Positions 30,179 to 31,488 of a DNA stretch of 64,000 nucleotides are shown one piece after another. The notes below the pieces were generated by a model, which made no database searches, was not told where the DNA came from, and saw nothing but the letters and a program-made list of their open reading frames with translations. Position 1 is the first letter of the stretch; each line of letters opens with the position of its first letter. A program made the position numbers and the translations under genes. This DNA comes from a virus (lineage: Duplodnaviria > Caudoviricetes): IMG/VR virus record IMGVR_UViG_3300027608_000010. One strand, written 5' to 3'.

Positions 30179-31488
30179 GAATAACTGAGATTATAGCTGA
30201 AGCAGCCAATCGTAAGAAACAGGCTGCGATTGCTATTGCTAAGAAAAAGAAGAAAGGTGTGGCGGAAGGCCTAAACGAACAAACATTTACAGGTGAGTAT
30301 GATTCAGAGGACATGCAGGATGCACGTGACCAGGCAGAATTTCAAGCAAAGCATTTACTAGGTCAATCAATTCACGGTGCTAACTGGGATGGTAACGTCT
30401 TCTCCCTGCCCTTAGATGATTACGATGGCCAGCATGAGCGCACCACTTCTGACGGTAAAGGTAAATTTATTGCAAAGTATACATATACAAAAAAAGTTCT
30501 ACCAAAAGTTCAAGAACAGGGTGTGGCGGAAGGCTCATTAAATGAATTTGCGATACCCGGTGGTGGAGATGGTGACTCAGGACGTTGGTATAACGATGAC
30601 GAGCTTGCTGATATCATTGGTGATGATTGGTTTGAGGACTTTGATGTCAGCAACGATGGGTTTAATATTGATGCCTACGGCGAAAAAGCCAAGAAGAATT
30701 TAGTGGGCTATGCAAATACATGGTTTGATGATAAAGGTTATAATGTTAACGTAATGGGTGTAGAACACAATGATGTTGATCATGATTTACAATGGTACAT
30801 TGTTGGTAGTTTCCATAATCCTCGCTTTGCCAACGAAGGTGTGGCGGAGGCTGGCTTTCCAGGTGCTCCAGACGTTGAAATGCCGCCAATGAAGCCAAGT
30901 GGTGATCCACAAAGAGACAAACTTAAACAAGAGTACGTGGACTTGCATCGTGAAATTAAAAGTTTGGTTGATTTACAGTATAATAGCAAATCAACAGAAG
31001 AAAAAATGCAGGCTAAAGCACGAATTAAACAACTCAATGACAGAGCAGACCAAATAAGGGCAATTCTAGAACCTAGACAGCCACCCAACGAATGGCAGAA
31101 AAAAACATATGGGTTTGATGACAACTGGAACAAAGTGAATCAAGGTGTGGCGGAAGACTGGAATAAAGTCAACAAGAAAGACAAGACTTCTGGAATGAGT
31201 CAAAAGGCGGTGAATGCTTATCGTAGAGAAAATCCAGGTAGTAAGTTAAAAACTGCTGTAACAACTAAGCCAAGTAAATTAAAGAAAGGCAGCAAAGCTG
31301 CCAACCGTCGTAAAAGTTTCTGTGCTAGAATGGGCGGTAACAAAGGTCCCATGAAAAAACCTAATGGTAAACCTACTCCCAAAGCATTGGCACTACGTAG
31401 ATGGAATTGCGAGAGTATAGAAGAATTACAAGAATTAGTAATGCTTGCTGAACAATTTGTAAACAAGAAAAAAAATGAGAGTATCTGA
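30175..31488 (+). CDS. cassette polyprotein with four GVAE junctions; C-terminal basic RRKSFCARM...RRWNC module (DUF6321-like)
   Basis: MRITEIIAE leader; GVAEG/GVAEG/GVAEA/GVAED separate compositionally distinct segments. Confidence 0.75.
   Translation: MRITEIIAEAANRKKQAAIAIAKKKKKGVAEGLNEQTFTGEYDSEDMQDARDQAEFQAKHLLGQSIHGANWDGNVFSLPLDDYDGQHERTTSDGKGKFIAKYTYTKKVLPKVQEQGVAEGSLNEFAIPGGGDGDSGRWYNDDELADIIGDDWFEDFDVSNDGFNIDAYGEKAKKNLVGYANTWFDDKGYNVNVMGVEHNDVDHDLQWYIVGSFHNPRFANEGVAEAGFPGAPDVEMPPMKPSGDPQRDKLKQEYVDLHREIKSLVDLQYNSKSTEEKMQAKARIKQLNDRADQIRAILEPRQPPNEWQKKTYGFDDNWNKVNQGVAEDWNKVNKKDKTSGMSQKAVNAYRRENPGSKLKTAVTTKPSKLKKGSKAANRRKSFCARMGGNKGPMKKPNGKPTPKALALRRWNCESIEELQELVMLAEQFVNKKKNESI
30256..31158 (+). 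repeat. four in-frame copies of GGTGTGGCGGA(A/G)G
   Basis: starts 30256, 30520, 30838, 31144; spacings 264, 318, 306 bp. Confidence 0.95.

Follow-up and report, generated by a model that had tools for sequence, protein, structure and literature searches.

Why does a single phage gene carry the same short DNA word, always in frame, at the joints between protein segments that are otherwise unrelated? This question is raised by P0001, an open reading frame (ORF) of 437 amino acids (aa) in a 64,000-nucleotide (nt) stretch of the IMG/VR record IMGVR_UViG_3300027608_000010 (Caudoviricetes), which stems from an uncultured freshwater T4-like giant phage. This whole stretch is called the window below. 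A preliminary description of the gene (30175 to 31488, plus strand) had proposed an integron-like array of peptide cassettes, targeted to the capsid and released by the prohead protease as a putative anti-defense payload. Here, module shuffling at the word was shown by comparing related loci. In addition, we consider it probable (roughly 0.6) that P0001 is a capsid-targeted polyprotein, cut into cargo of the size of T4 internal proteins (IPs), whose cleavage linker doubles as a recombination joint.

The DNA word and the modules of P0001

The 11-mer GGTGTGGCGGA occurs four times in the window, always on the plus strand (30256, 30520, 30838, and 31144), with spacings of 264, 318, and 306 bp that are all multiples of three, as had been described. 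When the 64 kb were searched with one mismatch allowed, no copies beyond the four were found. In shuffled sequence the mean was 0.37 copies, and four copies were reached in 0 of 100 shuffles. All four copies lie in frame in P0001, where they encode GVAE at residues 28, 116, 222, and 324, and this tetrapeptide is absent from every other ORF of the window. In the other long genes of the window, GTG makes up only 9.4% of the Val codons and GCG 6.5% of the Ala codons. Given the residues G-V-A, the probability of GGT-GTG-GCG is 0.0035 per site and 1.4e-10 across the four sites, which bears out the earlier remark that the motif uses rare codons.

The ORF starts at an ATG that shares nucleotides with the stop codon of the gene before it. 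Its leader, MRITEIIAE (aa 1 to 9; 30175 to 30201), resembles the T4 capsid-targeting sequence (CTS) and is followed by a 22-aa basic segment, AANRKKQAAIAIAKKKKK-GVAE (aa 10 to 31; 30202 to 30267), which is found behind the leader in many relatives and ends in linker 1 (GGT GTG GCG GAA; aa 28 to 31; 30256 to 30267). Cassette 1 (aa 32 to 119; 30268 to 30531; 9.9 kDa, pI 4.8) ends in linker 2 (CAG GGT GTG GCG GAA GGC context; aa 116 to 119; 30520 to 30531). Cassette 2 (aa 120 to 225; 30532 to 30849; 11.9 kDa, pI 4.05), a predicted alpha/beta domain that occurs in many other architectures, runs to the end of linker 3 (GGT GTG GCG GAG; aa 222 to 225; 30838 to 30849). Cassette 3 (aa 226 to 327; 30850 to 31155; 11.8 kDa, pI 6.9), a mobile module, runs to the end of linker 4 (CAA GGT GTG GCG GAA GAC context; aa 324 to 327; 31144 to 31155). 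Cassette 4 (aa 328 to 437; 31156 to 31485; 12.4 kDa, pI 10.4) contains the DUF6321 domain (PF19846; aa 335 to 410; 31177 to 31404), which was recognized with 58.2 bits against a gathering cutoff of 28.5 (E value, 1.3e-15). The segments between junctions thus measure 88, 106, 102, and 110 aa. As stated in the preliminary description, they are unrelated, with no mutual similarity except the linker and the pentapeptide WNKVN, and second sites follow the motif at two junctions (GVAE-GLNE and GVAE-GSLNE).

The WNKVN duplication lies at 31121 to 31172, where the end of cassette 3 (NWNKVN) and the start of cassette 4 (DWNKVN) are identical at 14 of 16 nt. In other phages, cassette 3 retains its NWNKVN tail even where different modules come next, and this tail looks like the scar of an older fusion to the DUF6321 module. 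Cassette 1 had been called GC-rich. This is weakly true, with a GC content of 0.432 against a window mean of 0.376 and a standard deviation of 0.036 (about 1.5 standard deviations up), and a foreign origin of the cassette on this ground was unconvincing.

The constraint on the linker was assessed in the window and 59 loci, which contain 106 in-frame GVAE sites in 72 distinct junction contexts with unrelated flanks. GGTGTGGCGGA is used in 56 of these 72 contexts. The third positions of the four linker codons are T, G, G, and A at frequencies of.93,.86,.86, and.90, compared with.47,.27,.09, and.82 in the background of the same ORFs, and the extended consensus is (A)CAA GGT GTG GCG GAA GG(C), encoding [Q/K]GVAE[G/A/D/E/S]. 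For comparison, the invariant residues of DUF6321 with four-fold-degenerate codons are encoded in these loci by three to four codons, of which the commonest has a share of only.44 to.6. Thus, the motif is conserved at the DNA level beyond what the protein needs, as had been suspected. The frame bias is nearly complete: the 11-mer stands in frame 0 in 70 of 71 copies, with 0 antisense copies. The exact 17-mer CAAGGTGTGGCGGAAGG was found in at least 120 IMG/VR stretches. In 119 of these loci, 160 of its 161 copies encode QGVAEG within an open frame; these 160 copies sit in 124 ORFs, each with one to seven GVAE sites.

At the protein level, the one-mismatch variants of the 11-mer comprise 17 synonymous and 6 non-synonymous changes (SVAE, DVAE, VVAE, GMAE, and GVTE), and all six of the latter retain a hydrophobic residue at P3 and Glu at P1. 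In diverged relatives, orthologous junctions carry GMSE, DVDE, QLNE, NIDE, SIAE, and similar tetrapeptides in place of GVAE. An internal translation start at the linker was also considered and rejected: a weak Shine-Dalgarno-like AGGTG is present, but no start codon lies at a usable distance. A Chi-like hotspot of the host was a further candidate explanation of the word.

Cassette exchange at the linker

A protein search with P0001 returned 7,477 matches among 8,000 scored candidates, mostly through a single cassette. In 59 IMG/VR loci the match runs from linker to linker (aa 113 to 226, 221 to 327, or 321 to 437) at 80 to 98% identity, and in about 180 metagenomic phage loci the protein and nucleotide homology begins or ends within the motif. 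When P0001 was aligned with 119 homologues, the ends of the BLASTP high-scoring segment pairs clustered at aa 220 to 226 and 322 to 327. Nucleotide identity to the window stays at about 95% until the motif and is random directly past it, and the side on which it is lost varies with the cassette that is shared. Cutting 120 homologues at their linker sites yielded 117 module clusters in many orders, with cassette 3 (102 aa) standing behind at least six different partners.

Two near-identical strains carry different cassettes at the junctions. In contig L022, the nucleotide identity to the window is 98.4% over 3.65 kb (26544 to 30194). Its gene then reads leader, Cys-rich modules, DVAE, cassette 1, GVAE, a different cassette of 55 aa, GVAE, and cassette 4, so that homology returns at 30250 to 30535, with cassette 1 at 94% nucleotide identity between the junction motifs, and once more at 31141. 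Contig L006 is 96.6% identical to the window over 31150 to 33682, and the last junction is preceded there by a different module, which is hydrophobic. Because such strains differ exactly at the junctions, the comparison of orthologs that had been named beforehand as a test favors exchange at the motif, with cassettes gained, lost, and replaced there. Four additional freshwater runs, including one RNA library, gave Logan contigs with the same breakpoints; these contigs end or diverge at 30250 to 30270, 30520 to 30535, 30836 to 30848, and 31141 to 31155. Two Logan contigs match solely 30836 to 31155 (cassette 3), with both flanks unlike the window, and one joins cassette 1 directly to cassette 4. 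P0001 is thus an array of unrelated in-frame cassettes, as proposed, and the modules are shuffled at the motif.

Two further observations concern these loci. The Cys-rich, zinc-ribbon-like modules of L022 (3626 to 4942 of that contig) are small and each end in hydrophobic-x-E (PIME, NLNE, SISE, AVAE, and DVAE), which suggests that cleavage would release very small proteins. Near the end of cassette 1, at 30491, one lake contig has a 12-nt in-frame insertion, AAAAGTTCCACC, which matches the L022 variant KKVPPNVIPKV; the window has KKVLPKV.

Predicted capsid targeting and cleavage

The T4 CTS is MKTYQEFIAE (PMC8442874); targeting depends on its residues 4 and 7, and processing on its residues 8 and 10 (PMC9026906). 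The T4 protease gp21 cleaves after L/I-X-E (PMC9026906, PMC8442874). The N terminus of P0001 follows the CTS pattern, and leaders of this type were found on most of the 120 homologues and on 35 of 80 motif-selected ORFs; examples are MRITEIITE, MKINEILTE, MIIDELFE, and MRAQEFITE.

Relatives of the phage encode a protease of this type. The window is syntenic with 37 to 117 kb of the IMG/VR contig G001 (352,754 bp, direct terminal repeats, rated 100% complete) at 50 to 65% aa identity. G001 has a T4-type head module in the order portal, small protein, acidic core protein, Peptidase_S77, coiled-coil scaffold, and major capsid protein, and Peptidase_S77, the gp21 family, matches at 224562 to 225188 with 92.5 bits. 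A leader MRAREFIAE is also present in G001, whose acidic core protein begins with MNKFEQLIE and whose capsid protein begins with MSQELLE. The S77 protease (PF03420) was detected in 9 of 15 related or motif-bearing contigs, including five of the six that are at least 90% complete; most S77-negative contigs are 27 to 76% complete.

The boundaries of the modules resemble sites of such a protease. In all 42 contexts of the DUF6321 module, a Glu stands directly before its start (DWNKVN). About 20 different tetrapeptides are involved, and the P3 residue is V, I, L, M, or Y in 41 of the 42 contexts. In one homologue, P0108, this module stands directly behind the leader (MKIQELLE|DWNK), and the leader Glu and the GVAE Glu are therefore equivalent boundaries. 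A hydrophobic-x-E site was also found ahead of cassette 3 in 36 of 39 contexts and ahead of cassette 2 in 24 of 30. The preliminary description had proposed cleavage after each Glu, and the recurrence of hydrophobic-x-E before module starts in many unrelated contexts, together with the gp21-type protease of the relatives, is consistent with it. We infer both the cleavage and the packaging of the P0001 products from evidence of this kind.

Based on these observations, the following scheme can be proposed. P0001 would consist of a T4-type leader, a short basic segment, and four unrelated modules of 10 to 12 kDa, the last being the basic DUF6321 domain, with a linker of the form [Q/K]-G-V-A-E-[G/A/D] at each junction. 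The leader would carry the polyprotein into the prohead core, where a gp21-type (Peptidase S77) prohead protease would cut after each hydrophobic-x-Glu, removing the leader and freeing IP-sized proteins. The freed cargo would remain with the DNA and be ejected into the host. The linker, as a DNA word of 12 to 17 nt (CAA GGT GTG GCG GAA GG), would also be the exchange point between co-circulating phages, most likely through recombination at short homologies, which the machinery of the phage itself would carry out during co-infection. Every swap at the linker would then be in frame and place a cleavage site at the new junction. Repeated crossing-over would homogenize the linkers at synonymous sites, and modules with the majority word would be favored.

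The genes around P0001 are of interest for capsid targeting. P0001 is the second of four overlapping genes in an operon (29417 to 33867) behind GATAAATA (29384 to 29391, plus strand), a T4-late-promoter-like octamer 26 nt upstream of the ATG at 29417 that may act as a promoter. An identical GATAAATA precedes the ATG at 21419. The run from 21419 to 33867 comes directly after the tail-fibre genes, looks late, and includes six genes with CTS-like leaders (MKISHLQE, MKIKDILLE, MILLE, MRITEIIAE, MRVSDLLLE, and MRYIEFYE). It opens with a 1,367-aa SLT/LysM protein that matches "internal virion protein with endolysin domain" and also encodes a GP88-domain protein, a ligase-like DUF6267 protein with a KWDG motif, and a cytidylyltransferase-like protein. 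Taken together, these genes are a candidate set of packaged enzymes. The CTS-like leader, the octamer, and the place of the cluster behind the tail-fibre genes, with the SLT/LysM protein at its head, all point to the capsid targeting that had been proposed, which stands as a prediction.

The core ATAAATA is depleted in the window (16 found versus about 29 expected) and biased toward the plus strand, where 14 of the 16 copies lie. Several lie 26 to 43 nt upstream of ORF starts, often as GATAAATA (for example, 10971 to 10978, 18834 to 18841, and 21391 to 21398). This pattern is suggestive of, and consistent with, a T4-like late promoter variant. The strict T4 late promoter TATAAATA was not enriched (3 found versus 7 expected) and was rejected. 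Cassettes also occur in metatranscriptome contigs, which is not in itself proof of transcription.

Apart from DUF6321, the Pfam scan of P0001 recognized no family and no polyvalent hub or peptidase domain. In 75 related, motif-selected GVAE polyproteins, Pfam found only sporadic GP88, LysM, ParB_N, and GNAT domains. The AlphaFold model of cassette 2 has a compact alpha/beta core (pLDDT of 75 to 87), and both linker-bearing ends are below 50 (disordered), which places the linkers in low-confidence segments that flank the folded core. Foldseek searches of the PDB and AFDB with the models of cassette 2 and DUF6321 (pLDDT of 68 and 62, moderate confidence) gave no match at an E value of 0.001 or below, and an Atlas feature search of the cassettes gave no usable match. 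Cultured phages contain the DUF6321 module only, with none of cassettes 1 to 3. Pelagibacter phage Eistla has its DUF6321 gene flanked by the scaffold gene and the capsid gene; in P-TIM68, the gene adjoins the terminase gene and the module follows TTNE. The basic DUF6321 domain may be a general head-internal, DNA-associated protein. A literature search found no paper that mentions DUF6321 and none that links GVAE to phages.

The genes of the window are nearly all on one strand and encode a family-B polymerase, clamp-loader-like, tail-fibre, and Dps/ferritin-like proteins, and a fatty-acid desaturase. The Dps/ferritin-like and desaturase genes, the latter for a membrane protein, lie within the leader-bearing cluster (27072 to 29296) and are unusual as phage auxiliary genes. 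A lone minus-strand gene for a 2OG-Fe(II) oxygenase (20702 to 21334) stands between the tail-fibre genes and this cluster. By eye, a DnaJ-like gene (J-domain start MEHYQTLGV...) adjoins a gene for a 760-aa Clp/Hsp100-like ATPase at 4603 to 7722, and both are kept in G001, at 36% and 62% aa identity. P0001 is recorded on a contig of 296,737 bp, and the DNA of the window was detected in about 20 freshwater or lake metagenome studies (2016 to 2025).

Competing explanations, precedents, and implications

Several points weigh against a polyprotein that is cut in the prohead. The predicted cleavage and packaging are read from sequence, and the evidence for an S77 protease comes from relatives of the phage. 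In G007, the motif-bearing contig of 342,865 bp behind locus L124 that is rated 99% complete, neither S77 nor a major capsid protein of the G001 type was detected, which would mean that its head module is of a different kind or that the contig is less complete than rated. The V at P3 differs from the canonical L/I of T4. The neighboring leader-bearing genes resemble ordinary enzymes (ligase-like and cytidylyltransferase-like), which would be unusual cargo, and Pfam, Atlas, and Foldseek revealed no cassette functions. DUF6321 is also found in podoviruses that have no gp21-type protease, such as the stand-alone 81-aa protein gp45 of the T7-like Eistla (L083, 2396 to 2641), so the module is not tied to that protease. 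Finally, recent spread and gene conversion alone could explain the conservation of the DNA, without selection on the word.

The strongest competitor is a protein of 48 kDa that acts intact, packaged or not, like the polyvalent proteins, with GVAE as a flexible linker and recombination joint. Shuffling at the linker needs no cleavage, the linkers are predicted to be disordered, and multidomain polyvalent phage proteins are known, some of them packaged unprocessed (PMC5512222). However, a plain linker would need no invariant Glu (42 of 42 contexts, one of them behind the leader) with a hydrophobic residue two positions ahead. Diverged junctions hold hydrophobic-x-E while all else changes (GMSE, DVDE, and QLNE), and the phage clade encodes a Glu-specific protease. 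We therefore regard an uncleaved protein as rather unlikely.

It is a good deal less probable that the polyprotein is cut at GVAE outside the prohead and that its N-terminal motif has another role, such as in translation or in assembly with another structure. P0001 adjoins genes of replication and nucleotide metabolism (PolB and ligase-like), and the window is without head genes, as a cytoplasmic product would allow. Against this, the leader is close to the experimentally defined CTS of T4, and similar leaders are found at the N termini of the head-core and capsid proteins of G001. In addition, gp21-type proteases are active inside proheads (PMC9026906), and the cluster opens, behind the tail fibres, with a protein of internal-virion type.

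About as improbable is a dedicated, truly integron-like exchange, in which cassettes, perhaps in circular form, are moved by a phage nuclease or recombinase that recognizes the 17-nt word; we rate it slightly below cutting outside the prohead. The synonymous-site conservation of the word, which exceeds that of the highly conserved DUF6321 domain, and its near-absolute use in frame would suit such an enzyme, and T4-type phages form mini-circles between repeated PeSL cassettes (PMC2839356). However, when 19 ORFs in the region from 8962 to 36917 were scanned with Pfam and PHROG, none was recognized as an integrase, a recombinase, or a homing endonuclease. As read from the sequence, CAAGGTGTGGCGGAAGG is neither self-complementary nor palindromic, has no attC-like inverted repeat, and has unrelated flanks. 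Junction variants with one to three synonymous changes occur, and no circular junction was found in the contigs (contigs, not reads). Like integron cassettes, the modules stand in an array and can be exchanged, and a conserved recombination sequence marks the limits of each. In contrast to integron cassettes, they have no IntI integrase among the ORFs scanned nearby and no attC hairpin, and they are in-frame segments of one 437-aa ORF, not separate ORFs or promoterless genes. With no recombinase found near the gene and a word that is not palindromic, the integron-like mechanism of the preliminary description is not supported, and the comparison with integrons holds only as an analogy.

An assembly artifact, codon bias, or chance is very unlikely: although all data are metagenomic assemblies, in which shared cassettes could mislead assemblers at a repeat, the chance probability is about 1e-10, and identical junctions turn up repeatedly, in 20 studies (2016 to 2025) as well as on contigs of more than 300 kb. 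The 17-nt word is probably shorter than the common word lengths of assemblers and so could not itself create joins.

Thus, a capsid-targeted polyprotein with a linker that serves both cleavage and exchange is the best explanation of P0001. A bolder proposal, which we hold only tentatively, is that the 17-nt linker is a DNA signal in its own right, that is, an integrase-free, perhaps enzyme-assisted site for the in-frame exchange of cassettes of injected proteins.

Parts of this picture are already known, namely, hypervariable internal proteins with a CTS tag, Glu-specific prohead proteases, polyvalent proteins, and motif-mediated shuffling. IPI, IPII, IPIII, and Alt of T4, which are processed by gp21, share with P0001 and its relatives a leader pattern of about 10 aa (MKTYQEFIAE in T4; MRITEIIAE here; MRAREFIAE or MRAQEFITE in relatives), predicted cleavage after hydrophobic-x-Glu, products of 8 to 20 kDa, a gp21-family protease in the clade, and a hypervariable, non-conserved set of cargo (PMC3012670, PMC9026906). 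However, the T4 internal proteins are single and cut once, whereas P0001 joins several unrelated modules in one ORF with a predicted site at each joint, and this site is also a conserved DNA word and a recombination breakpoint. The ejection and inner-body proteins of giant phages of the phiKZ/SPN3US type are likewise numerous head-internal proteins cut after Glu at a three-residue motif (S/A-X-E; proteases gp175/gp245), with redundant sites in their propeptides (PMC5694885, PMC9026906). These phages belong to another lineage and use another motif, and their proteins have long propeptides in place of cassette arrays; neither a conserved DNA linker nor an exchange of cassettes has been described in their case.

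The closest precedents for the exchange are the recombination at the glycine-rich motifs (GRMs) of the T-even gp38 adhesins (PMC3157838) and the PeSL cassettes (PMC2839356), where short conserved crossover sequences flank variable segments. As in this T4-type modular shuffling, homology breakpoints between the phages studied here coincide with a short conserved sequence. The GRMs are the structural core of one domain and the PeSLs are intergenic promoter-terminator units; in contrast, the word in P0001 is an in-frame linker of 12 to 17 nt between independent domains and also resembles a protease site. The polyvalent proteins (Iyer et al. 2017), which occur in phages and in conjugative elements, are similar in having many modules and in their predicted delivery together with the DNA, to act early in the conflict with the host, and related GVAE polyproteins carry ParB_N, GNAT, and LysM. 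Polyvalent proteins are defined by hub domains (zincin-like MPTase and others) and embedded peptidases, none of which is present in P0001. The modules of P0001 are small, most of them belong to no known family, and their release would need a protease in trans. The literature search found no description of concatenated cargo cassettes in one ORF with a putative cleavage site that is at the same time a crossover word of 12 to 17 nt.

The scale is considerable, with thousands of mosaic proteins in freshwater giant phages. If the proposed explanation is true, freshwater T4-like giant phages would have turned the T4 internal-protein principle of a leader and a Glu-specific head protease into a combinatorial system, in which the linker guarantees frame and release while small cargo proteins are traded between phages. 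This would be a natural case of a "conserved linker" in modular phage evolution, inside a gene, and it predicts specific cleavage products that are open to mass spectrometry. The leader together with the QGVAE word would also serve as a simple criterion by which virion-delivered proteins could be picked out of metagenomes. This criterion already applies to at least 120 viral contigs and thousands of mosaic proteins, and almost none of the modules belongs to a known family. If the linker is a DNA signal as well, modules with the consensus word would spread among co-infecting T4-like giant phages, and each exchange would yield correctly framed cargo that a protease can release. This would be a new route to combinatorial effector diversity and would make thousands of uncharacterized small proteins candidate factors for host takeover or anti-defense.

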